From: Acidimicrobiales bacterium
GTDB lineage: Bacteria > Actinomycetota > Acidimicrobiia > Acidimicrobiales > JACDCH01
Reading direction: 5' to 3'
DNA: 64,000 nt
Assembly: GCA_051000215.1 (NCBI GenBank)
Contig: JBPCON010000051.1
Span: 9,097 to 73,096 of the forward strand
Shown: positions 30,242 to 55,848 of the stretch, piece by piece
How positions within the stretch are numbered: position 1 is the stretch's first letter
Layout: each line of letters starts with the position of its first letter
Notes under the pieces: model-generated
Seen by the model: only the letters and a program-made list of their open reading frames with translations
Databases searched by the model: none
Told to the model about the DNA's origin: nothing
Translations under genes and position numbers: made by a program

Positions 30242-31720
30242 TCAGGCCAGGTGGTCGACGAACCCTTCGAGCTGGCGGAGGTTGCGGCACTCGAACACAC
30301 CATCGAGGTGCACCCCGTACTCGCCAACGATGGAGTCGCCAGTGTCCCAGTAGGAGCGCGGCTCGGGGTTGAGCCAGTAGACGTGACGCGCGCGGTGACG
30401 CATCTCCTTCATGATCCACGACTGTGAAGCGTGGTAGTTGTTGCGTGCATCGCCGAGGATGAGCACGGTCGACTTGGGCCCGATCTCCTTGCCCCACCGC
30501 TCCCAGAAGACCTCGAACGCGTGGCCGTAGTCGGAGTGTCCGTCGACCCAGACGACATCGGCTTCGCTGTTGACGCGGTGCACCGCCTCGCCGATGTCCT
30601 CGACGCCATCGAAGAACCTCGTCACCTCGTCGATGCCGTCGATGAACACGAACGACCGGACCTTCGAGAACTGCGCGCCGATCGCATAGACGAGGTGGAG
30701 CGTGAAGCGGGCGAAAGCGGCGACCGAACCGGAAATGTCGGCGATGACGACGATCTCGGGCTTCGTCGGCCTCGGGTACTTGAACTTGGGCTCGGCCGGC
30801 ACCCCGCCGTAGCTGAGCGAGTGGCGCACGGTGTTGCGGAAGTCGAGGGGACCCTTGCGCCCATGGCGCCGCTTCCGGGCGAGGCGCACCGCGAGGCGTC
30901 GAGTCAGCGGGTAGAGCGCCCGACGCAAGAGGGCCATCTCCTCACGCGAAGCGTGCATGAAGTCGATGTCCTCGGGCAACGGCTTGCGCAGCGTGCGGGC
31001 CATCGCCTCCACACCGCGGTCGGCCACGAGACGACGACGGATCTCGGCCTCGATCTCCTTCTTCAGCTGATCGATCCGAATCTGGTACTCGTCCTGCTCG
31101 AGGCGCTCCTCGAGCTGCGTCATGCGCGCCTGCTCACGCTTGTGCTGCATGAGCTTGTCGAGCACCCCGTCCAGATCGAGGTTTCGTAGCGTGCGGTAGA
31201 GGTAGTAGGTGCCCCCCACAGGTCGGCCCGGCTCCATGCCGGCGAAGCGCTTCACTGACTGGCGCGCCACCGCGCGCATGATGGCGGCGTTGCCATCGAG
31301 GAGCGCCTTGTAGAGCATCTCGGCGAGCTCCTCGGGCGTCATCGACTCACTACCGCCTGAGCCGTCGTTGCCCTCACCCTTCTGGCGCAGCTTGTCGAGC
31401 TCGTCCTCGAGCTCACCCAGGTCGAGGTCGCTGAGCTCGTCGCCGACAGCGAACTCCTTGCCGCGCAGCGAGAAGTAGATCTCGAAGACAGTCTCGAAGG
31501 CGCGCCAGTGCGAGTTGTTCTTCACGAGCGTGGCCGCCAGCGCGTACTTGAACGCCTCGCGATCCTCGAGCGGTACATGGCGCACGGCGGCCATCGCGTC
31601 GAGGTTCTCGGTGAGGCTCACCGGCAGGCCAGCCTCGCGCAGCTCCTGTATGAACCCGGCAAGGAGATCGACGATCGGTTGACCGGTCGCGGCGAGGACG
31701 ACCTCGCCCGAGCCACTCAC
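30242..31720 (-). CDS. VWA domain protein, CoxE-like (MoxR partner)
   Basis: The C-terminal VWA domain has the MIDAS motif VVIADISGSV and ILGDARNN. The N-terminal half is helical and acidic. GTG at 31720 overlaps the MoxR stop (GTGA). Confidence 0.85.
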   Translation of the reverse strand: MSGSGEVVLAATGQPIVDLLAGFIQELREAGLPVSLTENLDAMAAVRHVPLEDREAFKYALAATLVKNNSHWRAFETVFEIYFSLRGKEFAVGDELSDLDLGELEDELDKLRQKGEGNDGSGGSESMTPEELAEMLYKALLDGNAAIMRAVARQSVKRFAGMEPGRPVGGTYYLYRTLRNLDLDGVLDKLMQHKREQARMTQLEERLEQDEYQIRIDQLKKEIEAEIRRRLVADRGVEAMARTLRKPLPEDIDFMHASREEMALLRRALYPLTRRLAVRLARKRRHGRKGPLDFRNTVRHSLSYGGVPAEPKFKYPRPTKPEIVVIADISGSVAAFARFTLHLVYAIGAQFSKVRSFVFIDGIDEVTRFFDGVEDIGEAVHRVNSEADVVWVDGHSDYGHAFEVFWERWGKEIGPKSTVLILGDARNNYHASQSWIMKEMRHRARHVYWLNPEPRSYWDTGDSIVGEYGVHLDGVFECRNLRQLEGFVDHLA

Positions 31721-32640
31721 GATGTGGCCGCGACCTTCCACGGCTTGTCGGCCGTGCCCGGACCGTTCGCGCTGAACTCCTTGACAGCCTTGGTGATGTC
31801 GCTCTGGTACTTCAACAAAATGTTGATCGTCTCTGTCGCGTTTTCGGCATCGACCTGTTCGATCCCGAGCAGCATGAGCGTGCGGGCCCAGTCGAGGGTC
31901 TCGGACACGGAGGGCGACTTCTTCAACTCGAGCTGGCGGATGGAGCGCACGATGCGCGCCACCTGCTCGGCGAGGTTCTCGGTGATGTCGGGCACCTTGG
32001 TGAGGACGATCTGCTTCTCGCGCTCGAGATCGGGGTAATCGATGTGCAGGTAGAGGCAACGGCGCTTGAGGGCCTCGCTCAGCTCGCGGGTGTTATTCGA
32101 TGTGAGGAACACGAGCGGGATCTGCTTGGCCGTGACGGTGCCGAGCTCGGGGATCGAGACCTGGTAGTCCGAGAGGATCTCGAGCAGCAAGGCCTCGGTC
32201 TCGACCTCCACGCGGTCGACCTCGTCGATCAGCAACACGACCGGATCCTCCGCTGTGATCGCCTCGAGCAGCGGACGGGTGAGCAGGAACTCGTCGGAGA
32301 AGATGTCGTCCTCGATCTCCTTCCACGTGCCGTCGGCTTCGGCGTTGCGCTGCGCTTGGATGCGCAGGAGCTGCTTCTTGTAGTTCCACTCGTAGAGCGC
32401 CTTCGACTCGTCGAGCCCCTCGTAGCACTGCAGCCGGATGAGTCGAGCTCCGGTCATCTCCGCGACGGACTTCGCCAACTGGGTCTTGCCCGTTCCTGCC
32501 GGGCCCTCGACGAGGATCGGCTTTCCCAGCCGGTCGGCGAGGTAGACGATGCCTGCGATGCCCTCGTCGGAGAGGTAGTCGGCCTTGCGGAGCGAGTCCC
32601 GTACGGCAGGGACGGACTCGAAGCGATAGCTCGTCGGCAT
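31717..32640 (-). CDS. MoxR-family AAA+ ATPase
   Basis: Walker A VEGPAGTGKTQLAK, Walker B VLLIDEVDR, and overall MoxR/CoxD-like sequence of about 307 aa. Confidence 0.9.
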   Translation of the reverse strand: MPTSYRFESVPAVRDSLRKADYLSDEGIAGIVYLADRLGKPILVEGPAGTGKTQLAKSVAEMTGARLIRLQCYEGLDESKALYEWNYKKQLLRIQAQRNAEADGTWKEIEDDIFSDEFLLTRPLLEAITAEDPVVLLIDEVDRVEVETEALLLEILSDYQVSIPELGTVTAKQIPLVFLTSNNTRELSEALKRRCLYLHIDYPDLEREKQIVLTKVPDITENLAEQVARIVRSIRQLELKKSPSVSETLDWARTLMLLGIEQVDAENATETINILLKYQSDITKAVKEFSANGPGTADKPWKVAATS

Positions 32641-32720
32641 CGGCGCAGGCTACCTGCGCGCTTGACCGGGCGGTCAAGATGGTTCGAGCCCGCTCCCGGC
32701 TGGATCGGTACGCTCCGCGG

Positions 32721-33980
<1,260 letters not shown>

Positions 33981-34010: not shown

Positions 34011-35258
34011 TCAGGGGCGGGTTTGGCCGGTGCCATGGATGACGTACTTCAGGGTGGTGAGCTCGCGAAGCCCCATCGGGCCGCGGGCATGCAGCTTCTG
34101 GGTCGAGATGCCGATCTCGGCGCCCAAGCCGAGCTCCTCGCCGTCGACGAAACGCGTGGAAGCGTTGACCAACACTGCAGCAGCGTCGACCTCGAGGCAG
34201 AAGCGCTCGGCGTTCGCGAGGTCGCTCGTGACGATCGCCTCGGAGTGCCCGGTGCCGTAGCGCGTGATGTGCGCGACGGCCTCGTCGAGTGAATCGACGA
34301 CGCCGACCGCCAGCTTCATGTCGAGGAACTCGCTCGACCAGTCGCCGGCTGCCGCTGCGGAAGCGTCAGGGAGCAGCTTGACGGCACGCTCGTCGCCGAC
34401 GAGCTCGACCCCGGCGAGTGGTTCGCGTAGCCGACCGAGCAGGGCGGCGGCGATGTCGGCGTGCACGAGGAGGGTCTCGGCCGCGTTGCACACCGACGGG
34501 CGTTGGGTTTTCGCGTTGACCACGATCGCGACGGCCATGTCGAGATCGGCGGACGAGTCGACGTAGACGTGACAGTTGCCGTCGCCGTCGATGACATAGG
34601 GCACTGTCGCGTTGTCGAGGACGGAGCGGATGAGCGACGAGCCGCCCCTCGGGATGAGGCAGTCGATGAACTCGCGCTGACGCATGAACTCGACGGCCGC
34701 TTCGTGTGTCACGTCCTCGATCAGCAAGACGGCATCGTCGGGCATCCCGACCTTCGCCAACGCCTCGCGCAGCACCCCGACGATGGCGACGTTGGAGTTG
34801 ATTGCAGCAGAGGAGCCGCGCAGGAACGCCGCGTTCCCCGACTTCAGGCACAAGCCGAACGCGTCGGAGGTCACGTTGGGTCGGTTCTCGTAGATGACCC
34901 CGACGACGCCGAGCGGCACGCGCACTCGCTGCACGCGCAAACCGTTCGGGCGCGTCCAATCGTCGGTGACCTCACCGAGCGGATCCGCGAGGTCGGCGAC
35001 CTTGCGCAGCCCGCCTGCCATGGCGGCGATCCGGCCCGGGTCGAGGCGCAACCGGTCGACGACGGTGGTGGCTGCGCGGAGAGCCTCGGCCCTCGCAACA
35101 TCGACCCGATTCGCGGCAAGAACGTCATCGCTGCGCTCGACGAGCAGCCCAGCCGCTGCGAGCAGAGCCGCATCCTTCACGTCGGTCGCGGCCGTGGCCA
35201 GCACGCGCGACGCACCCTTTGCCCGCCGGCCGAGCTCGGGGATGGAGGCGTCTGCCAC
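34011..35258 (-). CDS. proA: glutamate-5-semialdehyde dehydrogenase
   Basis: Full-length ProA similarity (ANRVDVARAE, VIYENRPNVT, CNAAETLLVH with the catalytic Cys). GTG at 35258. Confidence 0.92.
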   Translation of the reverse strand: MADASIPELGRRAKGASRVLATAATDVKDAALLAAAGLLVERSDDVLAANRVDVARAEALRAATTVVDRLRLDPGRIAAMAGGLRKVADLADPLGEVTDDWTRPNGLRVQRVRVPLGVVGVIYENRPNVTSDAFGLCLKSGNAAFLRGSSAAINSNVAIVGVLREALAKVGMPDDAVLLIEDVTHEAAVEFMRQREFIDCLIPRGGSSLIRSVLDNATVPYVIDGDGNCHVYVDSSADLDMAVAIVVNAKTQRPSVCNAAETLLVHADIAAALLGRLREPLAGVELVGDERAVKLLPDASAAAAGDWSSEFLDMKLAVGVVDSLDEAVAHITRYGTGHSEAIVTSDLANAERFCLEVDAAAVLVNASTRFVDGEELGLGAEIGISTQKLHARGPMGLRELTTLKYVIHGTGQTRP

Positions 35259-35290: not shown

Positions 35291-35881
35291 ATGCCGGCAG
35301 TGCGAGAAGCGGAGAAGACAGATGTGCGCGCCGTGGCGGATGCCCTGACGCTCGCGTTCGCCGACGATCCGCTGATGGGTTACATGCTGCCGCGCGCAGC
35401 AAAGCGCCCGAAACAGATGACATCGTTCTTCCGCAACGACATCCGACGGGCCCTGAGCAAAGGCATCGTCTACACGACCCGAGCCGACGAGATAGCAGGA
35501 GGGGCCATCTGGATCTCGCCTGGCCGGTGGAAGACCGGCGGCGTGGAGCTCATCGGCCAAGTGCCCGTCTTGCTCGCCTTCGGCCGCGACACGCGGCGAG
35601 CGCTCGACGTGCTCGGGCGAGTCGAGAAGATCCACCCGAAGGAGCCGCACTGGTACCTCGCCGTGCTCGGCACGCGGCCGGCGCAGCAGGGCCACGGCAT
35701 CGGCTCCGCGCTCATGCACCCGGTGCTCGACCTCTGCGACAAGGACGGGATCGCTGCCTACCTCGAGTCATCGAAGGAGGCGAACATCCCGTTCTATCGC
35801 CGCCACGGCTTCGAGGTCACCGGCGAGGTCGCGATGAAAGACGGCCCCAGCGTGTGGCCGATGTGGCGCGATCCACGTTGA
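35291..35881 (+). CDS. GNAT family N-acetyltransferase
   Basis: MPAVREAEKTDVRAVADALTLAFADDP..., the acetyl-CoA motif RPAQQGHGIGSALM, and the C-terminal FYRRHGFEV. Confidence 0.8.
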   Translation: MPAVREAEKTDVRAVADALTLAFADDPLMGYMLPRAAKRPKQMTSFFRNDIRRALSKGIVYTTRADEIAGGAIWISPGRWKTGGVELIGQVPVLLAFGRDTRRALDVLGRVEKIHPKEPHWYLAVLGTRPAQQGHGIGSALMHPVLDLCDKDGIAAYLESSKEANIPFYRRHGFEVTGEVAMKDGPSVWPMWRDPR

Positions 35882-37272
35882 GCCCTGGCCTGACCGATCC
35901 GGTCACCGGGTTCATCGACGACGTCGCCGCGGCTCTTGCTGCTGTCGGTGCGGGTGAGCTCAGGTCAGAGGTGGTCCTCGACGCGTTCAACCTCGCGTGC
36001 GGGTTCATCGACGCAGACGATCGCCAGACCGACGACGAGCTGTGGTCACTCGCCGCCGCCTTCGGGGCCGAGCTCGACACGCCGCTCGCAGGCGCGACGC
36101 CAGCGGCACTCCGGACCTCCGGCATCGTCGCCGGTCAGCGCGCCTCGCTCGCGCAGCCCTCACCCCTTTGTCAGCTGCTCGTCGACGCTGACTGCAAGGA
36201 CCGCACGGTGCACAGCCACGTGTACTACCGGGCCGCGATCGACCTCGCGTTCGCGGTTGCCGCGACCGACGCGCACACCTCGACGGACGAGCTCGACACC
36301 ATCGAGCGGTACCGAGGCGTGCTGCTCACCGCAATGGACTCGGCCGGCGTGCCGCGCCCGGGCCAGCTCGACGCCCGGCCGGCGGCTGCGCTGACTGCAC
36401 CCCTGCGGACCGCGACGGCAGTGGGCACGCCGACGGCCACCCCCGATGCTCTGGCCGAGGATCTCGACGTTGTCTTGGCCGAGCTCGACGCGCTCATCGG
36501 CATGGCGAGCGTCAAACGCGAGGTGCGCCGCACGACAGACTTGGCTCGGATCGAGCAGTTGCGAGCGTCGCGCGGCCTGCCTGTCGCGGAGCGCAGTCGC
36601 CATCTGGTCTTCACGGGCAACCCGGGCACAGGCAAGACAACGGTTGCGCGCCTCCTCGCACGCATCTACCACTCCCTGGGCATCGTGCACAGGGGCCACC
36701 TCGTGGAGAGCGACAGGTCGCAGCTCGTGGCTGGTTACGTCGGTCAAACAGCGCCGCTCGTCCGCAAGGCCTTCGACGCCGCCGACGGCGGTGTGCTGCT
36801 CATCGACGAGGCCTATGCCCTCATCCGCGGCGGTCCCAACGACTTCGGCATCGAAGCCATCGACACGATCGTGAAGCTGGTCGAGGACCGGCGCGGCAGC
36901 ATAGTCGTGATCGTCGCTGGCTATCCCGACGAGATGGTCGAGTTCGTCGACGCGAATCCAGGGCTGCGTTCCCGGTTCCCGACGACGATCGAGTTCCCTG
37001 ACTACACCACCGGTGAGCTGGTGGAGATCCTGGACACGCTCGGCACCAGGCCGAGGTATCGATGCGACGGCGACGCTCGCGCCAAGGTCACTGCGTTCTT
37101 CGACGCCCAAGCCCGCGCGAAGGGCTTCGGCAACGGCCGCCTCGCGCGCAACCTGTTCGAGGCTGCCGTCGCGCGTCAGGCCGAGCGCCTGGCTGGCGTG
37201 AAGGATCCGAGCGACGACGAGCTCTGCACGTTGGTGGCCGCCGACATACCGGAAGCAGACGGCGCCCGGTGA
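35878..37272 (+). CDS. AAA+ ATPase of the CbxX/CfxQ-SpoVK type with a TerB-like helical N-terminal domain
   Basis: Walker A FTGNPGTGKTTVAR, Walker B VLLIDEAYAL, and PGLRSRFP. The N-terminal 200 aa carry two acidic D..D....DEL repeats (IDADDRQTDDELWSL and TDAHTSTDELDTI). Start is uncertain: TTG at 35878 overlaps the GNAT stop (TTGA) and an alternative GTG lies at 35971. Confidence 0.85.
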   Translation: MSPGLTDPVTGFIDDVAAALAAVGAGELRSEVVLDAFNLACGFIDADDRQTDDELWSLAAAFGAELDTPLAGATPAALRTSGIVAGQRASLAQPSPLCQLLVDADCKDRTVHSHVYYRAAIDLAFAVAATDAHTSTDELDTIERYRGVLLTAMDSAGVPRPGQLDARPAAALTAPLRTATAVGTPTATPDALAEDLDVVLAELDALIGMASVKREVRRTTDLARIEQLRASRGLPVAERSRHLVFTGNPGTGKTTVARLLARIYHSLGIVHRGHLVESDRSQLVAGYVGQTAPLVRKAFDAADGGVLLIDEAYALIRGGPNDFGIEAIDTIVKLVEDRRGSIVVIVAGYPDEMVEFVDANPGLRSRFPTTIEFPDYTTGELVEILDTLGTRPRYRCDGDARAKVTAFFDAQARAKGFGNGRLARNLFEAAVARQAERLAGVKDPSDDELCTLVAADIPEADGAR

Positions 37273-38183
37273 AGCGGTTCATCGCGCTCGTAGTGGCCGT
37301 GGCGCTCATCGGCGTGTCGCTCTTCATCCGCTCGCGAGTCGACAGCGGCGGCAACGACGCCGGCGGTGGATCCGTCGACCACAACGGGCGCCAGGTCGTC
37401 GTCTGCATCAACGAGTTGGCCGACGCCTGCCAGCGGGCATATGGGGCCACAGCAGACGTGCGCATCGAAGATGCCACGAGCACTGCGCGGACCTTGGCGA
37501 TGGGCGGCGCCGACATCGAAGCGTGGGTCACGTTGCGGGGATGGCCGGAGCTGCTCAGCGCCAAGGGGACGGGCTCCGCGCTCGACGCCTCGGCTGTCGC
37601 CTCCACCCCGCTGGTCATCGCCGGTGTCAAGGAGCGGCTCGCGGCGCTCAGCTGTGCCCCTTCGGGATGGTCGTGCCTGCTGCGCGCTGCCGGCAAGCAG
37701 TGGGGCGAGCTCGGAGGCGATGCTGGCTGGGGCACGGTGAAGATCGGCATCCCGCGAAGCAGCTCAGCTTCTGGGCTGCTGCTCGAGGCGAGCGCGGTCA
37801 CGGGCCTGGCCGGCAGCACCGAGGTCGGCACGAATGACCCCTCCTACACCGAGGCCACAACCTTGCTCCATGGGTCGGCCGTCACGGAGGACGCCGACGC
37901 GTTCGGCGCCTTCGCAGTCCAGCTCCCGGCTCGCTTCTCCGCCGTAGGCGCCCTGCAGGCCGACGTCGCCAACCGATCGGGCACCAAGGCCGACCAGATC
38001 ACGACGCTCACCCTGACGCCAGCAGCCACCGCTACCGCTGTCGTCGTGCGGATCGGCACCGGCCGGCGCATCGACGCGTCGAAACTGGCGAAGCTCCTCA
38101 CCGGCTCGGGGTGGACAAGCCCGGCAGCAGACAGCTCCGGTCTGCCAGACGGCGGCGTGCTGCTCGCGCTCGCTGGGATCTAG
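37269..38183 (+). CDS. TM-anchored extracytoplasmic protein, periplasmic-binding-protein-like, paralogous to the N-terminal half of the next gene
   Basis: GTG at 37269 overlaps the AAA+ stop (GTGA). It has an N-terminal anchor (FIALVVAVALIGVSLFI). By eye it aligns with the downstream protein, for example GWGTVKIGIPRSSSASGLLL against EWGAFRLGKTNPNFSTSGLN. GC3 is high. Confidence 0.65.
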   Translation: MKRFIALVVAVALIGVSLFIRSRVDSGGNDAGGGSVDHNGRQVVVCINELADACQRAYGATADVRIEDATSTARTLAMGGADIEAWVTLRGWPELLSAKGTGSALDASAVASTPLVIAGVKERLAALSCAPSGWSCLLRAAGKQWGELGGDAGWGTVKIGIPRSSSASGLLLEASAVTGLAGSTEVGTNDPSYTEATTLLHGSAVTEDADAFGAFAVQLPARFSAVGALQADVANRSGTKADQITTLTLTPAATATAVVVRIGTGRRIDASKLAKLLTGSGWTSPAADSSGLPDGGVLLALAGI

Positions 38184-38189
38184 ACGAAG

Positions 38190-40028
38190 ATGTCATCCAT
38201 GCGCGCCGCGGTTCGCCACCTCGCCCTTTCGGTCGTCATCATCGTCGTCGCAACCGCGTGCTCCTCGAGCACGTCGAACAGCGATGCATCGAACTCCTCC
38301 GCCTTCGGTGATCCCGGTAGCTGCGTCGTCGTCGACGTTGCCACGTCCCCGGAGAAGAACGATCTGATGTTGGCGCTCGCCAAGTCGTTCAACGCCAGTT
38401 CGGATGCCAAGCTCGGCGGTGACTGCATCTTCGTGCGCCCGCAGAAGAAGGCATCCGGTGCCGCTGCGACGTTGTTGTCGAGCAGCTGGGACGAGTCGAC
38501 CGACGGTCCCCGGCCAGTGATCTGGACTCCCGCCGCGAGCAGCTGGGGGACCATCGTCAACTCTCGGCTCACCAAGGCCGGCCAACAGCCCATCGTCAGT
38601 GCCGGCGAGCCGTTCATGGTGACGCCTCTCACGATCGCGATGCCCAAACCCATGGCCGACGCCCTCGGCTACCCCGCCAAGGCGATCGGATGGTCCGACA
38701 TACTCAGCCTCGCGACCAACAAGCAGGGCTGGGCGGCGTTCGGGCATCCTGAGTGGGGCGCGTTCAGGCTCGGCAAGACCAATCCGAACTTCTCGACCAG
38801 CGGGTTGAACTCCCTCATCGCTCAGGCCTACGCGGCGACCGGGAAGACCTCGGGCCTCTCGCTCGAGGACCTCGCGGCTCCCAACGTCGCCTCGTTCGCA
38901 ATCGGCGTCGAGTCATCGGTGGTGCACTACGGCGACACCACGCTCACCTTCCTCAACAACCTGTACAAGGCGGACCAGCGCGGAACGGCGCTCTCCTACG
39001 TCTCGGCCATCGCCGTCGAGGAGAAGTCGGTCATCGACTACAACCTGGGCAATCCCGACGGAATCCTCGACGCGGGTGAGAAGCCGCGGGCGCCTCGGAC
39101 GCCGCTCGTCGCGATCTACCCGAAGGAGGGAACGCTGTTCTCCGACAGCCCGCTCTACGTCCTTGACGCGTCCTGGGTGAGTCAGAAGCAGAAGGACGCG
39201 GCGAAGGCGTTCATCGAGTACGTGAAGCGCCCCGAGAACCAGACGCAAGTGCTGAAGTACAACTTCCGTCCGGGGAACACAGCGGTCCCCATCGCCGACC
39301 CGATCGTCGCGGCCAACGGAGTCAACCCCGACCAGCCCCAGACACTTTTCGAGGTGCCCCAGGCAGCAGTGCTGACGAAGCTCCTCGAGGCTTGGAGCGA
39401 TCAACGCAAGAAGGCGAGGGTGTCGCTCGTGCTCGACGTTTCGGGCTCGATGGGCGACCCGGCCGACCCGTCGAACGAGGAGGCGGGCACCAAGCTCGAC
39501 CTCGCAAAACAAGCTGCCATCGGCTCGATCGATCAGTTCTCCCCCGACGACGAAGTGTCGCTCACGATCTTCTCGACTGGGCTCGGCGACGGTTCGAAGG
39601 AGTTCGTCGAGCTCGTGCCGACGGGTCGCGTCGCCGACATCGGCGAGCAGCTGCGCACGAAGATCCGCGATCTGACACCGCAGAACGGCACACCTCTCTA
39701 CGACTTGACCAAAGCTTCCTACGATTCGGCGCTCGCCAGCTTCGACGCGACACGCATCAATGCCGTCGTGCTGCTCACCGACGGCCGCAACGACGACGGC
39801 AAGCCCGAAGACGACGACAAGCAGCTGCAGGACCTGGTCACCTCGTTGCGCTCCGGGAGCGAAGGCCAGGCGAACCAGCCCGTGCGTGTCTTCGCGATCG
39901 CGTACGGCACGGATGCAGACGAGTCCGCGCTCAAGACGATCGCCGACGCTGCCAGCAGCCTCGAGTACAGCGCCAAGGATCCGAAGACGATCACCAACGT
40001 CCTCAACGCGGTGATCTCGAACTTCTAG
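38190..40028 (+). CDS. substrate-binding (PBP-like) + VWA domain lipoprotein
   Basis: Signal peptide with a lipobox-like ...IIVVATA|C, an N-terminal solute-binding-like domain, and a C-terminal VWA domain with the MIDAS motif LVLDVSGSMGD plus VVLLTDGRNDDG. Confidence 0.85.
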   Translation: MSSMRAAVRHLALSVVIIVVATACSSSTSNSDASNSSAFGDPGSCVVVDVATSPEKNDLMLALAKSFNASSDAKLGGDCIFVRPQKKASGAAATLLSSSWDESTDGPRPVIWTPAASSWGTIVNSRLTKAGQQPIVSAGEPFMVTPLTIAMPKPMADALGYPAKAIGWSDILSLATNKQGWAAFGHPEWGAFRLGKTNPNFSTSGLNSLIAQAYAATGKTSGLSLEDLAAPNVASFAIGVESSVVHYGDTTLTFLNNLYKADQRGTALSYVSAIAVEEKSVIDYNLGNPDGILDAGEKPRAPRTPLVAIYPKEGTLFSDSPLYVLDASWVSQKQKDAAKAFIEYVKRPENQTQVLKYNFRPGNTAVPIADPIVAANGVNPDQPQTLFEVPQAAVLTKLLEAWSDQRKKARVSLVLDVSGSMGDPADPSNEEAGTKLDLAKQAAIGSIDQFSPDDEVSLTIFSTGLGDGSKEFVELVPTGRVADIGEQLRTKIRDLTPQNGTPLYDLTKASYDSALASFDATRINAVVLLTDGRNDDGKPEDDDKQLQDLVTSLRSGSEGQANQPVRVFAIAYGTDADESALKTIADAASSLEYSAKDPKTITNVLNAVISNF

Positions 40029-40039
40029 TGGTCCGCTAG

Positions 40040-40804
40040 ATGGCGCGCCTCACCCTCCGCGATCGGTTCTTCACGCCACCAGTGGCCCGCGCCATCACGT
40101 CGCCATCTGGGATCGTTCTGGCCGGCGTCGGCGCGTCGATCGGCATCCTTGCCGGGCTCCCCATTGTGGGTTGGGCCGCGCTCGGCGCCATCGCGTTCGC
40201 GGGTCGGGTTGCGACGGCTGTACCGCGGGGCGCGACATCCGGACGTATCGACCCGTTCGCGCTCGGCGAGCCATGGCGCCACTTCGTCTCGGCTGCCGTC
40301 CAGGCGGGCCGCAGGTTCGACGCTGCTGTGCAGGGAGCCAAGGAGGGCCCGTTGCGCGATCGCCTGCAGGAGATCGCGGGTGGCGTCGACGATGCCGTGC
40401 AGGAGTCCTGGCGCATCGCCCGCCAGGGCCAGGCGCTGTCCGACGCCCGTACCCACCTCGATGCGACAGCGGTGCAACAGGAGCTCGACGAGCTCGAGCG
40501 CTCCATCGGAAACGCGATCCCGGATCCGTCGAGCGCAACCGCAGGGACACTCAAGGCGCTCCAGGCGCAGCTCGCTTCGGCACGACGCATGGACCGGACC
40601 ATCAACGACGTCCACGACAAGCTCCGCCTGCTCGACGCGCGCCTCGACGAGTCGGTGGCCCGGGCGATCGAGCTGTCGGTCGACGCCCAGGATCCGAGCG
40701 AGCTCGGCGGTCTCGGCGACGACGTGCAAGGCATCGTGGTCGACCTCGAGGCGCTGCGCCAGGGCCTGGAGGAGACGGACCACCCCACGCCCGGGCTGGC
40801 GTGA
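40040..40804 (+). CDS. hypothetical membrane protein: N-terminal TM hairpin + cytoplasmic coiled-coil
   Basis: Two hydrophobic helices (GIVLAGVGASIGILAGL and IVGWAALGAIAFAGRVA) are followed by about 170 aa rich in heptad-like helical sequence (LDATAVQQELDELERSIG..., LRLLDARLDESVARAIELS). The codon bias is coding-like. Confidence 0.65.
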   Translation: MARLTLRDRFFTPPVARAITSPSGIVLAGVGASIGILAGLPIVGWAALGAIAFAGRVATAVPRGATSGRIDPFALGEPWRHFVSAAVQAGRRFDAAVQGAKEGPLRDRLQEIAGGVDDAVQESWRIARQGQALSDARTHLDATAVQQELDELERSIGNAIPDPSSATAGTLKALQAQLASARRMDRTINDVHDKLRLLDARLDESVARAIELSVDAQDPSELGGLGDDVQGIVVDLEALRQGLEETDHPTPGLA

Positions 40805-42507
40805 CCGTGCCGGCCCGGGCCCGGTGGGTGCACCTCAAGGGCCACAACCCGCACCTGGTCGAAGGAGCCGGGCTCACCGAGCCCGACGTGACTCGCCGCG
40901 TCGCGGTCGCCGACGCTGACCGGCGAGACGAAGCCACGAGCACGCAACGGTTGGTGCGCTCCTCTGCGGTCGTTGGCCTGGGCACTGCCCTGTCGCGAGT
41001 CACCGGGTTGCTGCGCACGATCGCGCTCGCGTACGCGCTCGGTGCCACCGCCGTCGCCGAGGGATACAACCTCGCGAACACGACGCCCAACATGGTCTAC
41101 GACCTACTGCTCGGAGGCATCCTTTCCGCGACGCTCGTCCCGGTCTTCGTCGATCGCTTCGACAACGAGGACGACGATGGGGTGTCGGCGATCATGAGCG
41201 TTGCCGCGGTTTGCCTCGTCGCGCTGACCGTGGCCGCCGTGATCGCGGCCCCGCTGATCTTCAAGCTCTACACCTGGCAGAAGCACGGTACCGATGCCGC
41301 GGAGGCGAGCCGGATCGGGGTGCCGCTGCTTCGCTTCTTCCTCCCCCAGATCTTCTTCTACGGCCTCACCGCTCTTGGCACAGCGCTGCTCAACGCGCGG
41401 CGCCGCTTCGCCGCGCCCGCGTTCGCGCCGGTGCTGAACAACCTCGTCGTGATCGCCGTGCTCGTCGCCTTCGCCCGCGTCGCTGGACGCTCGCCGAGCG
41501 TTGGGAGCGTGACCGGGAGCAGCGGACAGCTGTGGCTCCTCGGGTTGGGCACCACCGTTGGCATCGTGGTCATGGCTGTCACCCTCGGACCGGCGGTGCG
41601 AGCCGCCGGCATGCGGCTGCGGTGGCGGCCACGGCTACGCGACCCAGCCGTGCGCAAGGTGGCGTCGCTGTCGGGGTGGACCTTCGGCTACGTCCTCGCA
41701 AACCAGGTGGCCCTGGTGGTGAGCTTGGCCCTCGCCGGACGCGAGCCGGGAGGGGTCAGCTGGTACACGTACGCGTTCATCTTCTTCCAGCTCCCTTACG
41801 GCTTGTTCGCCGTCTCCGTCATGACAACGGTGACGCCTGACCTCTCCGCCGCTGCATCGGCAGGCGACCAGTCGAGCTTCCGCGAGCGCTTCGCGCTCGG
41901 CGGGCGGCTCATGACCCTGGTCGTGCTGCCATCCTCGATCGGCATGGTCGTCCTAGCGCGGCCACTCGTGAACGTGCTGCTCGGCCGGGGCTCGTTCACC
42001 GCAGCCGACGCCACGGGCACCGCGCAGACCTTGGCGTGGTTCGCGGCCGGTCTCGTCTTCTTCTCCCTGTACCTCTTCGCGCTGCGAGGCTTCTATGCCC
42101 TGCACGACACGAAGACGCCCTTTCTCATCAACCTGGGCGAGAACGCGCTCAACATCGTGCTGGCGTTCGCTCTGGTGGGGCGCTACGGGGTGCCCGGGCT
42201 GGCGGCCGCCTACTCCGTGTCCTACCTCGTCGCCTGTGTCGTCGCGCTCGGCGCGTTGCGCCACCGCGCCGGCGGGCTCGGCGGCCGCGCGCTCCTCGCG
42301 CCGATCGCGAGGATGGTCGCCGGCGGTGTCGCCATGGGTGCTGTGATCGTTGGGGTCGGTCACACCATCGGAGGGAGCACCGGGGTTGGGGGCATTGTTC
42401 GCATCTCGGTCTCGGTCGTGCTCGGCGCCGCGGTGTACTTCGGCGCCGCGTTCGTGCTGCGCATCGACGATGTCCGCGCGGGCGCCAACCGCCTCGCTCG
42501 GCGATAG
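40801..42507 (+). CDS. murJ: lipid II flippase MurJ (MviN)
   Basis: LVRSSAVVGLGTALSRVTGLLRTIALAYALGAT...YNLANTTPNMVYDLLLGGILSATLVPVF is the MurJ N-terminal signature and the protein is polytopic. Start is uncertain: GTG at 40801 (GTGA overlap), or 40828 or 40888. Confidence 0.88.
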   Translation: MTVPARARWVHLKGHNPHLVEGAGLTEPDVTRRVAVADADRRDEATSTQRLVRSSAVVGLGTALSRVTGLLRTIALAYALGATAVAEGYNLANTTPNMVYDLLLGGILSATLVPVFVDRFDNEDDDGVSAIMSVAAVCLVALTVAAVIAAPLIFKLYTWQKHGTDAAEASRIGVPLLRFFLPQIFFYGLTALGTALLNARRRFAAPAFAPVLNNLVVIAVLVAFARVAGRSPSVGSVTGSSGQLWLLGLGTTVGIVVMAVTLGPAVRAAGMRLRWRPRLRDPAVRKVASLSGWTFGYVLANQVALVVSLALAGREPGGVSWYTYAFIFFQLPYGLFAVSVMTTVTPDLSAAASAGDQSSFRERFALGGRLMTLVVLPSSIGMVVLARPLVNVLLGRGSFTAADATGTAQTLAWFAAGLVFFSLYLFALRGFYALHDTKTPFLINLGENALNIVLAFALVGRYGVPGLAAAYSVSYLVACVVALGALRHRAGGLGGRALLAPIARMVAGGVAMGAVIVGVGHTIGGSTGVGGIVRISVSVVLGAAVYFGAAFVLRIDDVRAGANRLARR

Positions 42508-42516
42508 TGTCCGCGC

Positions 42517-43341
42517 ATGTTCAAGGCCCTCCGGCGGATGTGGAAGTACATGGCAGCGAAGCTCAGCGGCGACTTCGAGGCGCGCGCTGACCCCAAGGTG
42601 CAGCTCGAGCAAGCGATCCTCGAAGCGCACGACCAGCATCGCCGCCTCAGGGAGCAAGCCGCGAACCTCATCGCCATGCAGAAGCAGAGCGAGATGCGCT
42701 TGAACCGCGACATGGAGCAGCTCGAGCGGCTGAACGGCAACGCCCGTCAAGCCGTGCTCATGGCCGACGATGCCGACAAGAAGGGCGACAAGGCGCGCAT
42801 GGAGGAGCTGACGCGGGCCGCTGAGGCCATCGCCCAGCAGCTGATCGCGCTCGAGGCCACCATCGACAAGGAGAAGACCGACCTCCTCAGCGCCACCTCG
42901 GCTTCTGAGCAGGCGAAGGCCTCGGTGCAGCAGAACTCTTCAGCGCTGCAGAAGAAGCTGACCGAGCGCAACCAGCTGCTCGGCCAGCTCGAGCAGGCGA
43001 AGATGCAAGAGCAGATGAACAGGGCCATGGCGTCGCTCTCCGAGGCCGTCGGCGAGGACGTGCCCACGCTCGACGAGGTCCGCAACAAGATCGAGGCGCG
43101 CTACGCCAAGGCCAAGGGGATGCAGGAGCTCTCCGGCTCATCGGTCGAGAACCACATGCTCGAGATCGAGCAAGCTGCCCGCAGCTCGGAGGCCCAGGGC
43201 CGCCTCGCCGAGATACGAGCACAGCTCGGGCTCGCGCCGGCTGCCGCTGAAACGCCAGCCGTCGGGACCCCCGCCAGCGACCCCGCCAGCCAACAGGTGG
43301 CCGAACCCACCCCCCAAGAGGGCACGACGCCCAGCGTCTGA
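42517..43341 (+). CDS. pspA: PspA/IM30 (Vipp1) family membrane-stress protein
   Basis: MFKALRRMWKYMAAKLSGDFEARADPKVQLEQAILEAHDQHRRL is a typical PspA/IM30 N-terminus and the protein is coiled-coil throughout. Confidence 0.9.
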   Translation: MFKALRRMWKYMAAKLSGDFEARADPKVQLEQAILEAHDQHRRLREQAANLIAMQKQSEMRLNRDMEQLERLNGNARQAVLMADDADKKGDKARMEELTRAAEAIAQQLIALEATIDKEKTDLLSATSASEQAKASVQQNSSALQKKLTERNQLLGQLEQAKMQEQMNRAMASLSEAVGEDVPTLDEVRNKIEARYAKAKGMQELSGSSVENHMLEIEQAARSSEAQGRLAEIRAQLGLAPAAAETPAVGTPASDPASQQVAEPTPQEGTTPSV

Positions 43342-43342
43342 G

Positions 43343-46881
<3,539 letters not shown>

Positions 46882-47145: not shown

Positions 47146-47460
47146 CTAGATCCCGGCCGAGATCGCGGTGATCTCGATGGTGTCGTACTTCTGACGGTGG
47201 CCCCAGCGCACTCGAGACCGCGACTTGTTCTTGTACTTGAAGCCCGTGATCTTTGGGCCCTTGGTCTCCGCGACGACGCGGGCGGTGACCGAAGCCCCCG
47301 AGAGCTCATCGGGGGTCGAGAGGACGCTGTCGCCATCGACGACCAGGATGGGCGTCAGCGTGATGTCGCTGCCGACGGCCTGGCCGAGCAGCTCGACGTC
47401 GAGCCGCTGGCCCTCGGCCACTCGGGCCTGCTTCCCACCGGTCTTGATGACTGCGTACAT
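47146..47460 (-). CDS. rplU: 50S ribosomal protein L21
   Basis: MYAVIKTGGKQARVAEGQRLDVE is the L21 N-terminus. Confidence 0.93.
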   Translation of the reverse strand: MYAVIKTGGKQARVAEGQRLDVELLGQAVGSDITLTPILVVDGDSVLSTPDELSGASVTARVVAETKGPKITGFKYKNKSRSRVRWGHRQKYDTIEITAISAGI

Positions 47461-47507
47461 AGGGGGTCGACCTTACCGGATGAGGTGCGCGGTCAGCGAA
47501 GCAGGCT

Positions 47508-49406: not shown

Positions 49407-49421
49407 TCGGAAGTTCCCTTC

Positions 49422-50180
49422 TCACGACGCGCACTCCTCGAGTGCACGGAGCGACGTCGCGGGGGTTGCGAGCGCAAGTGGCTCGGTCAGCGCGCCGTCG
49501 GTCGAGATCCATTGGTGCAACCTGCAGGTGCGCAACTCGATCGCCTCGGGGCCGATGAGGCCCACCAGCTCGGAGGGGCGCAGGCCCCGAGCCTGGGTCG
49601 CCAAGTCGGCGATCAGCTCGATGCCGTCTTCGAATCCATCGTCTTCGCAACGATCCCTGTCGTCACCGACGGTGAGGCTGACGATGGCGGGACGCACGTC
49701 GTCGACGACCGCATGGCCTTTGCGCTCGCGGGAAGCGACGAGCGTCTCGGCAGCGACGACCCTCGCCACCTGCTCGGTGAGCTCGGCGCGGCTGAGCCCA
49801 CCGACGATTATGCGCCACGTTGAGCGCTCGACAGCTTGCTGCAACGACGGCGTGCCCGGCGCGATCTCGATCGCGCCCTGAACCGCGATGCCGACGGGCA
49901 GGACGGGACCGAGGCGAGCGACGAGGTCGTCGATGCCCATGCGGGCTGCCAGATCGATGTCGAGGTACTCCCCCACCGACTCGTGGCTGGTCGAGAGGGC
50001 AAGCCCGAAGCTGAGGCGCGCGTGCGGGTTGAACCCCAGGGTGAGCGCAACTGGCACCTCGGCCCGGCGCAACACCCGCTCCCACACGCGAGCGATGTCG
50101 CGGTGGCTGGTGAAGCGGATCTTGCCGAGCTTCGAGTAGCGCAACCGCACGGTCATGACGACGTTCGAGACGCCGCTCAT
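49422..50180 (-). CDS. DUF2344 / TIGR03936-type radical-SAM-associated protein
   Basis: RLRYSKLGKIRFTSHRDIARVWERVLRRAEVPVALTLGFNPHARLSF is typical of this family as I recall it. ATG at 50180 overlaps the upstream radical-SAM stop (ATGA). Confidence 0.85.
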   Translation of the reverse strand: MSGVSNVVMTVRLRYSKLGKIRFTSHRDIARVWERVLRRAEVPVALTLGFNPHARLSFGLALSTSHESVGEYLDIDLAARMGIDDLVARLGPVLPVGIAVQGAIEIAPGTPSLQQAVERSTWRIIVGGLSRAELTEQVARVVAAETLVASRERKGHAVVDDVRPAIVSLTVGDDRDRCEDDGFEDGIELIADLATQARGLRPSELVGLIGPEAIELRTCRLHQWISTDGALTEPLALATPATSLRALEECAS

Positions 50181-52099: not shown

Positions 52100-52163
52100 G
52101 TCGAGGCCAGGCTACAGGGCACCCCGTCGCCCGGACCGCCAGCTGGGGGCGGCCCGAGGAGCG

Positions 52164-55348: not shown

Positions 55349-55848
55349 AGGGCCAACCTGGTGTGACGCTCCGCGGGAACCGCCCAGCGGGCGATGCGCA
55401 GGGCGGGGAGCACCAGGGCGCCGTTGATGATGGCGACCACGGCCGCGATCTGCAGGAGGCGCGCCTCGAAGTAGCCCTCCTGGCCGAGCACCGTCCCGAT
55501 GACGGCGAACAACACGACGCCGAGCACGCTCGCCCCCATGGCCGAAGCAACAGGTATCCACCACGAGGCCCGCAGGACGCCGCCCTGCAACGTGCCGACC
55601 ACGAAACCCGTGATGCAGTACGCCAGCGCGTACAACCCGACCGGCGTGCCGACGACGAGTAGGTCGTAGCCGAGGCCGGCGGCGAATCCCGCCATCGCGC
55701 CACGATCGGGCCCCCCGACGATCCCCGCTGCAATAGCGAAGAGCAGCACCACGTCGGCGCGCACCCCGAAGACGGCGAGATCGGCGAAGAGCGTCGTCTG
55801 CAGCACCAGGGTGAAGAACAGCACGAACGAGGCGCGCGCTGTCGTCAC
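55345..55848 (-). CDS. mreD: rod shape-determining protein MreD
   Basis: Small polytopic membrane protein between mreC and mrdA. GTG at 55848 overlaps the mreC stop (GTGA); an alternative ATG lies at 55863. Confidence 0.8.
   Translation of the reverse strand: MTTARASFVLFFTLVLQTTLFADLAVFGVRADVVLLFAIAAGIVGGPDRGAMAGFAAGLGYDLLVVGTPVGLYALAYCITGFVVGTLQGGVLRASWWIPVASAMGASVLGVVLFAVIGTVLGQEGYFEARLLQIAAVVAIINGALVLPALRIARWAVPAERHTRLAL

Follow-up and report, generated by a model that had tools for sequence, protein, structure and literature searches.

A conserved gene block of Acidimicrobiia and related Actinomycetota unites PspA with its own AAA+ ATPase and a putative cell-surface sensor of three proteins

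[quoted passage not shown] In the window analysed here, 64,000 nucleotides of an Acidimicrobiales genome, these genes form part of a block of seven plus-strand genes lying between a divergent proA and a convergent proB (Table 1). The block comprises two separable conserved sub-modules, AAA with PspA and SBP1 with SBP-VWA and CC2TM, each of which is also found without the other. MurJ and GNAT are lineage-specific passengers outside the portable core. The gene context is best read as that of a PSP-type envelope system: a sensor and anchor outside the membrane would recruit PspA, and the AAA+ protein would remodel it. The wider proposal of a composite, vertically inherited, PspA-centred envelope-maintenance locus, made of the two sub-modules and the two passengers, is tentative and stands somewhat short of an even chance. 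The first-pass annotation knew of no characterised system of this composition, and none is described in the PSP surveys (PMC11237479, PMC9239133) or in the SpoVK-clade paper (PMC11513918).

Table 1. Coordinates and supporting matches of the seven-gene block and its flanks (positions in the window)
Feature	Position	Strand	Support
proA, glutamate-5-semialdehyde dehydrogenase	34011..35258	-	NCBIfam NF001221 E 1.2e-169; left flank, outside module
GNAT acetyltransferase, 196 aa	35291..35881	+	Pfam Acetyltransf_10/1/7/9, E 1.8e-10 to 2.7e-6
AAA+ ATPase	35878..37272	+	Pfam/NCBIfam: AAA E 7e-15, AAA_lid_6 E 4e-17
SBP1 (ORF3), 304 aa	37269..38183	+	SBP_bac_11 21.7 bits, sub-threshold
SBP-VWA lipoprotein, 612 aa	38190..40028	+	Pfam SBP_bac_11 E 5e-12, VWA E 4e-8
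CC2TM, 254 aa	40040..40804	+	Pfam/NCBIfam: no match
MurJ, lipid II flippase family, 568 aa as called	40801..42507	+	TIGR01695 330 bits, cut-off 235.55
PspA/IM30, 274 aa	42517..43341	+	PF04012 (PspA_IM30) 98.6 bits, cut-off 33.9
proB, glutamate 5-kinase	43343..44437	-	TIGR01027 E 2.5e-114; right flank, outside module
obg, next after proB	44434 to ~45750	-	NF008955 E 2.4e-139

Inspection of the open reading frames and of the sequence itself bears out the layout given by the first-pass annotation, including the seven co-directional frames, their coordinates and all six junctions: -4 nt (TTGA at 35878), -4 nt (GTGA at 37269), +6 nt, +11 nt, -4 nt (GTGA at 40801) and +9 nt in gene order. The distances of 32 nt between the starts of proA (35258) and GNAT (35291), and of 1 nt between the stops of PspA (43341) and proB (43343), are likewise correct. 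The MurJ profile match begins only at residue 51-76 of the reading frame, so the MurJ start, and with it the overlap between CC2TM and MurJ, is uncertain. Since the estimated median intergenic distance in the loci of relatives is 12-58 nt at every junction, tight spacing is not unique to the source genome. The flanking proA, proB and obg are confirmed NCBIfam equivalogs, with the housekeeping run of rplU, rne and PBP2 farther downstream; GC content is uniform over the region. No Rfam element was found in the region, and the seven-gene block encodes no regulator of the PspF, LiaRS or ClgR type. Among the gene calls, GNAT, AAA+, SBP-VWA, MurJ and PspA are supported by Pfam and NCBIfam, while the PBP-like call for ORF3 is weak (21.7 bits against a cut-off of 25).

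Conservation was followed in two sets of loci: 80 GTDB species loci anchored on the SBP-VWA gene, with denominators that vary with the assessable flank, and 80 loci from metagenomes collected with the ATPase N-domain as anchor. The order AAA-SBP1-SBPVWA-CC2TM-(MurJ)-PspA is repeated in dozens of species-level Acidimicrobiia genomes, and recurs without MurJ or pro genes in Nitriliruptorales and Egibacteraceae MAGs, as well as in MAGs labelled only Actinomycetes or Actinomycetota; the neighbourhood is thus not confined to the source genome. The reciprocal search, anchored on the ATPase N-domain, retrieves the same block. With the SBP-VWA anchor, CC2TM is co-located in 44/44 loci with sufficient flank and immediately adjacent in 64 of 74, and SBP1 lies upstream in 62 of 75, at just 23-41% identity. 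AAA is present at the locus in 57 of 69 genomes (absent in 12/69), and PspA lies <=3.3 kb downstream of CC2TM in 44 of 50 loci (absent in 6/50). The Nitriliruptoria-type loci have unrelated flanks, yet gene order and close packing within the five-gene core are unchanged there, which indicates that these genes travel together. A distant CC2TM, with 37% identity, is still found within AAA-SBP1-SBPVWA-CC2TM-PspA.

The first-pass annotation took the seven genes for one operon-scale module, which proves too strong. MurJ occurs only in loci flanked by proA/proB (35 vs 12, none discordant) and is absent from the Nitriliruptoria-type loci; it is found inside the block in 37/50 loci, and a proA flank in 39 of 59 assessable loci, all of Acidimicrobiia type. 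Its slot between CC2TM and PspA holds two sequence types, both PF03023, and MurJ is a lineage-specific insertion at this position. The link to cell-wall precursor export that had been proposed is a lineage feature and not a property of the conserved core. GNAT, present in 23/59 loci (39%), is a lineage-specific accessory gene that is operonic with the ATPase where present (median gap ~12 nt in 24 loci).

Nor is the remainder indivisible. With the ATPase N-domain anchor, AAA-MurJ-PspA|proB is found without the sensor trio in two loci (L155, L168), a shorter locus (L165) shows AAA-MurJ-PspA and another (L167) reaches its contig end inside MurJ; PspA thus remains next to the ATPase where the trio is missing. 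Conversely, the trio occurs without ATPase and PspA in L011, L033 and L055. In L146 and others SBP-VWA is swapped for an ABC transporter and AAA...CC2TM-MurJ-PspA is kept. The SBPVWA|CC2TM junction of relatives carries kilobase-scale insertions, either an enoyl-CoA-hydratase-like gene or an entire sugar ABC transporter, and the block may therefore comprise at least two transcription units. The presence of AAA and that of PspA are associated (36/1/7/3, Fisher p = 0.026, with phylogeny not corrected for).

Residues 1-160 of the ATPase form a private all-helical N-domain, which a disordered linker (164-189) joins to an AAA+ module with AAA_lid_6 (196-458); the AF2 model of the protein has a pLDDT of 83. 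Its best Foldseek match is CbbX (3syk, 42% identity over the AAA+ module, E 1.7e-18). Walker A GNPGTGKT, Walker B DEAY, the pore loop [YF]-[VIL]-G and the GY sensor-1 are invariant, as are N360, four residues ahead of R364, and the sensor-2 residues R421/R424; arginine fingers are present. These motifs agree with the signatures given for the SpoVK-EccA-like clade (PMC11513918), and the protein belongs to the CbbX/SpoVK/EccA clade and not to the MoxR-type ATPases. Its scores fall far under the equivalog cut-offs of CbbX (218 vs 459), SpoVK (270 vs 423) and EccA (225 vs 467). Like these relatives it combines the AAA+ module with a variable recruiting domain at the N-terminus and lacks an associated peptidase, and it shares the cell-envelope context of SpoVK and EccA. 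In contrast, its gene neighbours are different, and its N-domain is unrelated to the described TPR, beta-helix, beta-prism and SpoVK N-domains. The "TerB-like" label first given to this domain was not reproduced: Pfam gives no signal (0/15 members), a PDB profile search none, and hhalign against annotated TerB a probability of 0.2%. The sole hint of a Vps4-type MIT domain is non-significant (E = 0.73). Two DxDG..(D/E)EL-type repeats can be seen by eye in the N-domain.

The sensor trio begins with SBP1, which, to judge from its sequence, is a degenerate, membrane-anchored periplasmic-binding-protein-like domain. Hydropathy marks residues 1-24 as a hydrophobic anchor or signal, which places the protein outside the cytoplasm, and a weak paralogy (E 0.023) extends across the signature loops to the SBP part of SBP-VWA. 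The latter, with >5600 homologues, has a signal peptide with a lipobox and an invariant Cys24, a type-2 PBP domain (~49-370) and a VWA domain (413-604). Its MIDAS is intact and invariant (D416-x-S418-x-S420, T501, D531), the loop LGKTNPNFSTSGL is also invariant, and the nearest structures of the VWA domain are those of BatA-like membrane VWA proteins (4rck, 4jdu). CC2TM starts with the conserved peptide RDRFFTPPVARA, predicted to be cytoplasmic, followed by a TM hairpin (~21-58) and then by ~180 aa that form a helical bundle in the cytoplasm, and it closes with a short tail ending in PG[TVL]A; the AF2 model shows five long helices with pLDDT ~90 over residues 70-247. It has no match in Pfam or NCBIfam and no significant match among PDB folds, and by hhalign it is not PspA-like. 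Its 921 homologues are mostly "hypothetical protein" or unnamed, and 1094 clusters at 50% identity occur among 1.84 billion representatives. In Streptomyces and in Thermoleophilia (Miltoncostaea) the gene after SBP-VWA encodes a 2TM/coiled-coil protein with the architecture of CC2TM, whose homology to CC2TM is not significant.

Several known systems resemble the block in part. As in PSP systems, a bona fide PspA/IM30 gene, whose product here has an amphipathic helix at its N-terminus and a C-terminal tail rich in Pro/Ala/Thr, lies beside a small 2-TM membrane protein with a cytoplasmic domain, and CC2TM may recruit PspA to the membrane. Lineage-specific partners are the general pattern of PSP systems (PMC11237479, PMC9239133) and are found here too. 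The block differs from these systems in that no homology of CC2TM to PspB/C, LiaI/LiaF or PspM was detected, that it encodes no transcription factor or two-component system, and that a CbbX-clade AAA+ protein and two extracytoplasmic SBP/VWA proteins are added, none of which is listed in the searched texts and supplements of the two surveys. PspA operons with a double AAA+ protein, also with ABC and PBPB-OmpA genes, were described by Ravi et al. 2024 (PMC11237479), whereas a single AAA+ domain and SBP-VWA are found here. The pairing also recalls ESCRT-III/Vps4 of archaea and eukaryotes: an ESCRT-III-superfamily polymer is genomically coupled to a classical-assemblage AAA+ protein whose pore loop is intact and whose helical N-terminal domain is separate, and the coupling outlasts the loss of the genes in between. 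In contrast, the ATPase falls outside the Vps4/katanin/spastin family.

Beyond what is observed of the block, its genes and their domains, the features that bear on topology, its conservation and its separability, we infer protein contacts, a ligand, an ATPase client and a direction of signalling as follows. The cytoplasmic sub-module would pair PspA with its dedicated classical AAA+ ATPase, helical N-terminal domain included. Those members of the CbbX/SpoVK/EccA clade that have been characterised are narrow-substrate chaperones (CbbX for RuBisCO, SpoVK for MurG, EccA for T7SS substrates), which suggests that a product of the locus itself is the client that the ATPase threads or remodels. The likeliest client would be PspA assemblies, with the ATPase as a functional counterpart of Vps4; alternatively, it could be the cytoplasmic part of CC2TM. 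In the transmembrane sub-module, SBP-VWA and SBP1 could bind a small, probably anionic, ligand outside the membrane, and the MIDAS could bind an acidic group of a protein or wall polymer. CC2TM, as a putative N-in/C-in hairpin, may relay the outside state through its cytoplasmic bundle, which would also dock PspA at the membrane, the role of PspB/C, LiaI and PspM elsewhere. In Acidimicrobiia, MurJ would have been captured between CC2TM and PspA, and GNAT often stands ahead of the ATPase; both would thus be co-expressed with the block, yet neither is part of the portable core.

It is unlikely that the block merely reflects inherited synteny without a common mechanism, in which GNAT, the ATPase, a surface SBP/VWA pair plus its membrane partner, and the housekeeping genes MurJ and PspA would each be an independent unit kept in place by a very stable Actinomycetota region (mre...rne-rplU-obg-proB...proA). 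The perfect co-variation of MurJ with the pro-gene flank is consistent with such inheritance, as are the insertions at SBPVWA|CC2TM, the sub-modules occurring apart and the housekeeping neighbours. However, order and spacing persist amid the unrelated flanks of the Nitriliruptoria-type loci and in the locus where CC2TM is only 37% identical, and AAA and PspA are still adjacent once the three intervening genes are lost. A locus that mainly tunes peptidoglycan precursor export, with MurJ or a cytoplasmic Mur enzyme as ATPase client and PspA protecting the membrane around export, is improbable. MurJ is polytopic with little cytoplasmic mass, and would offer an AAA+ protein little to engage. The presence of MurJ within most blocks and the tight AAA-MurJ-PspA operons without the trio (L155, L165, L168) point towards this explanation, as does the analogy with SpoVK, which belongs to the same AAA+ clade and promotes MurG function (PMC11513918). 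Nevertheless, MurJ follows chromosomal location and not ATPase presence, and the Nitriliruptoria-type loci and L084 hold AAA-SBP1-SBPVWA-CC2TM-PspA with no MurJ within 10 kb.

Very improbable is a tellurite-resistance-type metal/Ca2+ stress system built from a TerB-like ATPase N-domain, a TerY-like VWA protein and a membrane coiled-coil protein. TerY proteins are cytoplasmic, whereas the VWA domain here is extracytoplasmic; TerB signal is lacking in the searches given above, and no TerD, TerC or TelA occurs in the window or in any of 80 loci. In its favour are the by-eye repeats and the genuine TerD-linker-CC2TM fusions (P0395, P0422), one of which adjoins a second TerD gene; on plasmids, the fusion's TerD domain is most closely related to TerD-VWA fusions that lie next to a ter cluster. 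The least credible explanation is that the AAA+/VWA pair, a combination that the first-pass annotation had linked with sensing and conflict systems, makes the block an NTP-driven conflict or anti-phage system, or else that the two SBPs serve solute uptake; the co-occurrence of AAA+, VWA and SBP domains is all that speaks for either. AAA+ and VWA/MIDAS genes do cluster in MoxR-VWA pairs (the Bat aerotolerance operon, CoxD/CoxE, Aravind-type ternary conflict systems, Esr pathways), and the VWA domain resembles BatA-like VWA structures, but the ATPase is CbbX-type. Its VWA neighbour is fused to an SBP on a secreted lipoprotein outside the membrane, so that the two lie in different compartments, on opposite membrane sides, and topology rules out that the AAA+ protein acts directly as a chaperone of the VWA protein. 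No defence-system match was found in the region, where PADLOC returned generic P-loop matches only (19-27 bits); the locus encodes no effector, belongs to the vertically inherited core and has an even GC content. With regard to uptake, the core lacks a permease and an ABC ATPase, and the ABC genes of some relatives are sugar-type insertions carrying their own SBPs.

Of the envelope-system interpretation first advanced, the conserved and undescribed composition is retained, and the single module, the AAA+/VWA analogy and the precursor-export link are given up. According to a 2025 review (PMC7619361), bacterial PspA has no known Vps4-like ATPase, and the PspA-paired AAA+ protein described here bears on that point.

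The seven ORFs of the block are all encoded on the + strand and follow one another, from the GNAT gene to pspA, through a TTGA overlap, a GTGA overlap, gaps of 6 and 11 nt, a second GTGA overlap and a final gap of 9 nt. The window sequence bears out both the block and these junctions as described in the first-pass annotation, with caveats for the MurJ start, which is uncertain, the SBP call for ORF3, which is weak, and the "TerB-like" label of the ATPase. Profile searches confirm the identities of proA, proB and obg; the long N-terminal extension of the obg ORF probably results from a start codon called too far upstream in this GC-rich genome. The GC content is even throughout the block region, and no Rfam family is found between 33000 and 48000. 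A consensus scan of the block, uninformative for an actinobacterium of 68% GC, detected no promoter-like sites; terminator-like sites numbered two, where 3.6 would be expected. Pfam and NCBIfam searches of the seven genes and their immediate flanks gave no HTH or bEBP protein and no dedicated regulator (PspF, LiaRS or ClgR). The housekeeping run 3' of the block (47146-55564) places it in a stable region linked to cell-elongation genes. The VWA_CoxE-type gene, about 2 kb past the 3' end of proA, is a second VWA gene, unrelated to SBP-VWA.

Coordinates of the features in the window and in related loci
Feature	Sequence	Position	Strand	Remark
VWA_CoxE-type protein, 605 aa	window	30242-32059	-	Pfam E 2.9e-45
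PLP-decarboxylase-like gene	window	32679-33980	+	between VWA_CoxE-type gene and proA
proA start	window	35258		32 nt from GNAT start
Seven-ORF block	window	35291-43341	+	ends at PspA stop (43341)
TTGA overlap	window	35878	+
Segment of ATPase N-domain with sub-threshold MIT match	window	36163-36270	+	residues 96-131
GTGA overlap	window	37269	+
CC2TM C-terminus	window	40787-40801	+
GTGA overlap	window	40801	+
proB stop	window	43343		convergent; 1 nt from PspA stop
obg ORF, 752 aa	window	44434-46692	-	Obg profile begins at residue 314
rplU	window	47146-47460	-	housekeeping run
RNase E/G	window	47508-49406	-	housekeeping run
Radical SAM/B12 protein	window	50177-52099	-	housekeeping run
Class B penicillin-binding protein	window	53336-55564	-	housekeeping run
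Enoyl-CoA-hydratase-like insert	L002	11845-12657
Enoyl-CoA-hydratase-like insert	L004	11835-12737
Sugar ABC transporter insert	L015	11929-19069
Sugar ABC transporter insert	L146	12083-16978
AAA-MurJ-PspA without the trio	L168	10001-14097
TerD-CC2TM fusions P0395, P0422	L081; L083	900-2444 (L081)
CC2TM-SARP fusion P0475	L085	5861-7420
TerD-VWA genes and TerD/TerC/TerB cluster	L086	9001-10260, 13595-18137
SBP-VWA and hairpin protein, Streptomyces	L088	7905-10545
SBP-VWA and hairpin protein, Miltoncostaea	L089	7851-10356

The neighbourhood on which the first-pass annotation staked its reading is conserved outside this genome, as seen in 80 loci anchored on SBP-VWA (one genome per GTDB species), onto which ten window proteins were mapped by tblastn and counted only where the flanks suffice. 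CC2TM, the 254-aa hairpin protein, is present in 44/44 loci and lies directly beside SBP-VWA in 64 of 74. SBP1 is found in 62/75 loci and the ATPase in 57/69; PspA lies within 3.3 kb of CC2TM in 44 of 50, MurJ stands between these two in 37 of 50, and the GNAT gene occurs in 23/59. Twelve loci carry the order AAA-SBP1-SBPVWA-CC2TM-PspA without MurJ or the pro genes. Their sources are MAGs of Nitriliruptorales and Egibacteraceae, or MAGs with no finer label than Actinomycetes, Actinomycetota or Acidimicrobiia, and the flanks show no conservation from one of these loci to the next. A distant CC2TM, at 37% identity, lies in this five-gene order too. Median intergenic distances, estimated from related loci, are 12-58 nt at every junction. 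One locus, titled "Acidobacteria bacterium ATN2" (L027), keeps the whole Acidimicrobiia gene order (proA ... proB-obg), with proteins 57-67% identical, and this bin is probably mislabelled or contaminated.

The block is separable. The presence of MurJ matches the location between proA and proB perfectly (35 versus 12 loci, none discordant). Among relatives, the junction between SBP-VWA and CC2TM is a hot spot for insertions: an enoyl-CoA-hydratase-like gene is inserted there in the closest ones, and in another clade a complete sugar ABC transporter with a MalK-type ATPase, two permeases and its own SBP_bac_8 proteins. SBP1 and SBP-VWA are lost in one clade with the ABC insert. SBP1-SBPVWA-CC2TM occurs alone, in unrelated contexts, at three loci. 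A second anchor, the ATPase N-domain, recovered the full block again from metagenomes, together with loci that lack this trio and keep AAA-MurJ-PspA|proB-obg, complete in L155 and L168; shorter contigs show AAA-MurJ-PspA (L165) or AAA-MurJ only (L167). The trio-less AAA-MurJ-PspA lineage is seen in metagenomes only, some of them marine. The same anchor also returned AAA-[ABC transporter]-CC2TM-MurJ-PspA without SBP-VWA, in L146 and others. Loci with the ATPase tend to have PspA as well (36/1/7/3, p = 0.026, uncorrected for phylogeny). Collectively, the simplest summary is that of two separable sub-modules, {AAA+, PspA} and {SBP1, SBP-VWA, CC2TM}, usually interleaved in one tight cluster, with MurJ and GNAT as Acidimicrobiia passengers. 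The initial proposal of seven genes forming one operon-scale module goes too far, given the sub-modules that occur apart, the junction insertions and the coincidence of MurJ with the proA/proB location.

In the AF2 model of the ATPase (pLDDT 83), residues 1-160 form an N-domain of eight helices and residues 164-189 a disordered linker, followed by a canonical AAA+ module. Searched with Foldseek, the model comes closest to CbbX, the red-type RuBisCO activase (3syk, 42% identity, E 1.7e-18). In Foldseek the module is CbbX-like, not Vps4-like, and Pfam places AAA_lid_6 on it (E 4e-17). GNPGTGKT, DEAY, AGYP (the GY sensor-1), N360-x3-R364 and the sensor-2 arginines R421/R424 are invariant in an alignment of 27 sequences, in which the pore loop is aromatic-hydrophobic-Gly. 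[quoted passage not shown] The top NCBIfam models are CbbX, SpoVK and EccA, with every score far under the equivalog cut-off (218/459, 270/423 and 225/467 bits, respectively), which rejects identity with any of these proteins proper; there are no RuBisCO, sporulation or T7SS genes near the ATPase. The N-domain has no Pfam match in 15 orthologues and no PDB sequence relative in a profile search. TerB (PF05099) matches 0/15 N-domains at E <= 10, the PDB profile search returned no TerB structure, and a TerB of a Pseudomonas plasmid, annotated by PGAP, aligned in hhalign with a probability of 0.2%. These sequence and profile comparisons give the "TerB-like" label no support, and at that level only a resemblance of motifs is left. 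The sole sub-threshold match (E 0.73) is to 2v6y, the MIT domain of Vps4/CdvC from Sulfolobus, centred on the helix-turn-helix "AD.K.G...A..YY..A.E.AF", and it is treated as a lead, not as evidence.

On the extracytoplasmic side, SBP-VWA matches the SBP_bac_11 and VWA profiles. Its sequence is shared, at 100% identity, with an NCBI MAG protein from Acidimicrobiales (Actinomycetota), the order to which the genome of the window belongs. It has a signal peptide, and Cys24 of its AAAC-type lipobox is invariant, so the protein is an extracytoplasmic lipoprotein. The PBP signature loop LGKTNPNFSTSGL is invariant, as are the residues D416, S418, S420, T501 and D531 in 21 sequences, and the VWA domain, closest to BatA-like membrane VWA structures, carries by sequence the DxSxS...T...D pattern of a MIDAS site. 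SBP1 (ORF3) matches SBP_bac_11 weakly, below threshold, and has one hydrophobic segment, at the N-terminus; its alignment to SBP-VWA is weak and falls on the signature loops of the SBP domain there. With orthologues only 23-41% identical, it is apparently a paralogue of that SBP domain that has degenerated and evolves fast. Genes for a cognate permease and ABC ATPase are lacking in the window and in most of the loci.

CC2TM begins with a conserved cytoplasmic N-peptide, followed by the TM hairpin (about 21-58) and a cytoplasmic bundle of five long helices (AF2, pLDDT about 90). No Pfam or NCBIfam model matches it, and Foldseek against the PDB returns generic or designed helical bundles only, none at E <= 0.001; neither result supports homology to PspB/PspC, LiaI/LiaF or PspM. 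A PspA/ESCRT-III paralogue was also rejected (hhalign against a 13-sequence PspA alignment, probability 0.7%). At 50% identity, the family falls into about 1100 clusters. Two members, P0395 and P0422, join TerD through a Pro-rich linker to CC2TM, hairpin included, and a second TerD gene adjoins one of these fusions; in P0475 the cytoplasmic domain alone is joined to a SARP regulator (Trans_reg_C + BTAD). To judge by these fusions, the helical bundle acts as a movable adaptor or signalling module. The TerD domain of the fusions is most similar (~30% identity) to TerD-VWA fusion proteins of Pseudomonas megaplasmids, whose genes lie ~3-4 kb from a TerD/TerC/TerB cluster. A 384-aa "TerD family" protein of Deinococcus, considered as a further fusion, has no similarity to CC2TM. 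On a Streptomyces linear plasmid and an 816-kb replicon of Miltoncostaea oceani (Thermoleophilia), SBP-VWA (40% identity) is followed immediately by a hairpin/coiled-coil protein of 264-271 aa, annotated as "hypothetical protein", with no ATPase or PspA nearby. Homology of these proteins to CC2TM was not accepted, hhalign against single sequences being non-significant (E 0.01-0.04); they share its architecture and are taken as analogues or, possibly, remote homologues.

PspA is assigned by a full-length match to PspA_IM30 (PF04012; 98.6 bits, cut-off 33.9, residues 5-236) and MurJ by MurJ/MviN TIGR01695 (330.1 bits against an equivalog cut-off of 235.55). Two MurJ sequence types, 40-65% and 28-33% identical to the window protein and both clearing PF03023, occupy the same slot (L008, L015, L016, L026, L027, L030 and others), which means either that MurJ has diverged deeply or that a paralogue has taken its place there. 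Pro/Ala/Thr-rich C-terminal tails are common to CC2TM and PspA orthologues in the SBP-VWA-anchored loci. PG[TVIA] falls within the last eight residues of 15/70 CC2TM and 12/51 PspA orthologues, against ~1.5 expected from shuffled tails, kinship being ignored. The shared feature may act as a tag for recognition of both proteins, or may come from compositional drift. The window PspA ends in ...TTPSV.

The protein contacts and the mechanism considered here are drawn entirely from comparative evidence. Given that characterised members of the ATPase clade act on single dedicated clients and that PspA is the only constant companion of the ATPase, remodelling of PspA assemblies would rank first among its candidate activities, and action on the cytoplasmic domain of CC2TM second. 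CC2TM, because its entire soluble mass is cytoplasmic, may serve as a membrane dock for PspA. Outside the membrane, SBP1 and SBP-VWA with its MIDAS site could sense a ligand or contact with the wall and pass this on by way of the SBP1 anchor or the CC2TM hairpin. An unlikely proposal as it stands, put forward tentatively, is that the CbbX-clade AAA+ protein is a dedicated ATP-driven remodeller of PspA polymers, a functional counterpart of Vps4 from another AAA+ lineage, coupled to an "integrin-like" outside-in device. This device would run from an extracellular MIDAS/SBP receptor pair through the TM hairpin to the cytoplasmic helical-bundle adaptor, and would tell PspA where the wall-membrane interface is compromised.

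Pure synteny without a shared mechanism is a fairly unlikely account of the locus, since the block is conserved amid unrelated flanks and the AAA-PspA adjacency outlasts deletions. A client of the ATPase in the lipid II pathway has a precedent in SpoVK-MurG and is attractive in Acidimicrobiia, but it fails in the carriers that lack MurJ, and is decidedly unlikely. The TerD-CC2TM fusions speak for a Ter-like metal-stress system; however, with no detectable TerB, and with ter genes absent from the window and from all 80 loci, this reading deserves little credence. Least probable of all is a conflict/defence or solute-uptake system. It is opposed by the topology, the ATPase type, the lack of permeases in the core and a negative PADLOC search of the seven proteins, in which the ATPase gave only generic P-loop matches (19-27 bits) and the other six none. 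The ABC genes of the L015 and L146 clades are insertions with their own SBP_bac_8 proteins. The likeness to AAA+/VWA conflict systems drawn in the first-pass annotation fails as well: the ATPase is not of the MoxR type (AAA_5 scores merely 17 bits, over the P-loop), and the VWA protein has a signal peptide and a lipobox Cys. In MoxR-VWA systems, the MoxR AAA+ protein (AAA_3/AAA_5) and the VWA protein share a compartment, unlike the ATPase and VWA protein of this locus.

Among known systems, the locus in its working most resembles a PSP system whose partners are lineage-specific. It shares PspA with the classical PspABC-F, Lia and ClgR-PspAMN systems but has no homologous membrane partner or regulator gene. 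A VWA protein, MurJ or CbbX-type ATPase beside PspA is unmentioned in broad PSP surveys (PMC11237479, PMC9239133) and in the SpoVK-clade paper (PMC11513918). Ravi et al. (PMC11237479) described PspA together with a double-AAA+ protein, ABC genes and PBPB-OmpA genes; the PspA-plus-AAA+ theme is therefore not new, although the double-AAA+ protein differs from the ATPase found here. The domains of the locus are all known except CC2TM and the ATPase N-domain.

The locus defines an unannotated membrane-protein family, CC2TM. This protein, or one of the same architecture, trails the SBP-VWA gene from Acidimicrobiia to Streptomyces, and the pairing is a candidate transmembrane sensing dyad of the Gram-positive envelope. 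Even if the proposed mechanism is wrong, the "seven-gene envelope system" has been resolved into separable pieces, with MurJ a passenger. PspA and Vipp1 are bacterial ESCRT-III proteins. According to a review (PMC7619361), no Vps4-like ATPase is known to govern the dynamics of PspA/Vipp1 polymers in bacteria. The ATPase, a classical AAA+ protein whose pore loop is intact and whose substrate-recruiting domain is private to it, is a testable candidate remodeller of PspA polymers, kept with pspA across two or more Actinomycetota classes even after loss of the intervening trio. The locus makes the question of what remodels bacterial ESCRT-III polymers directly testable.
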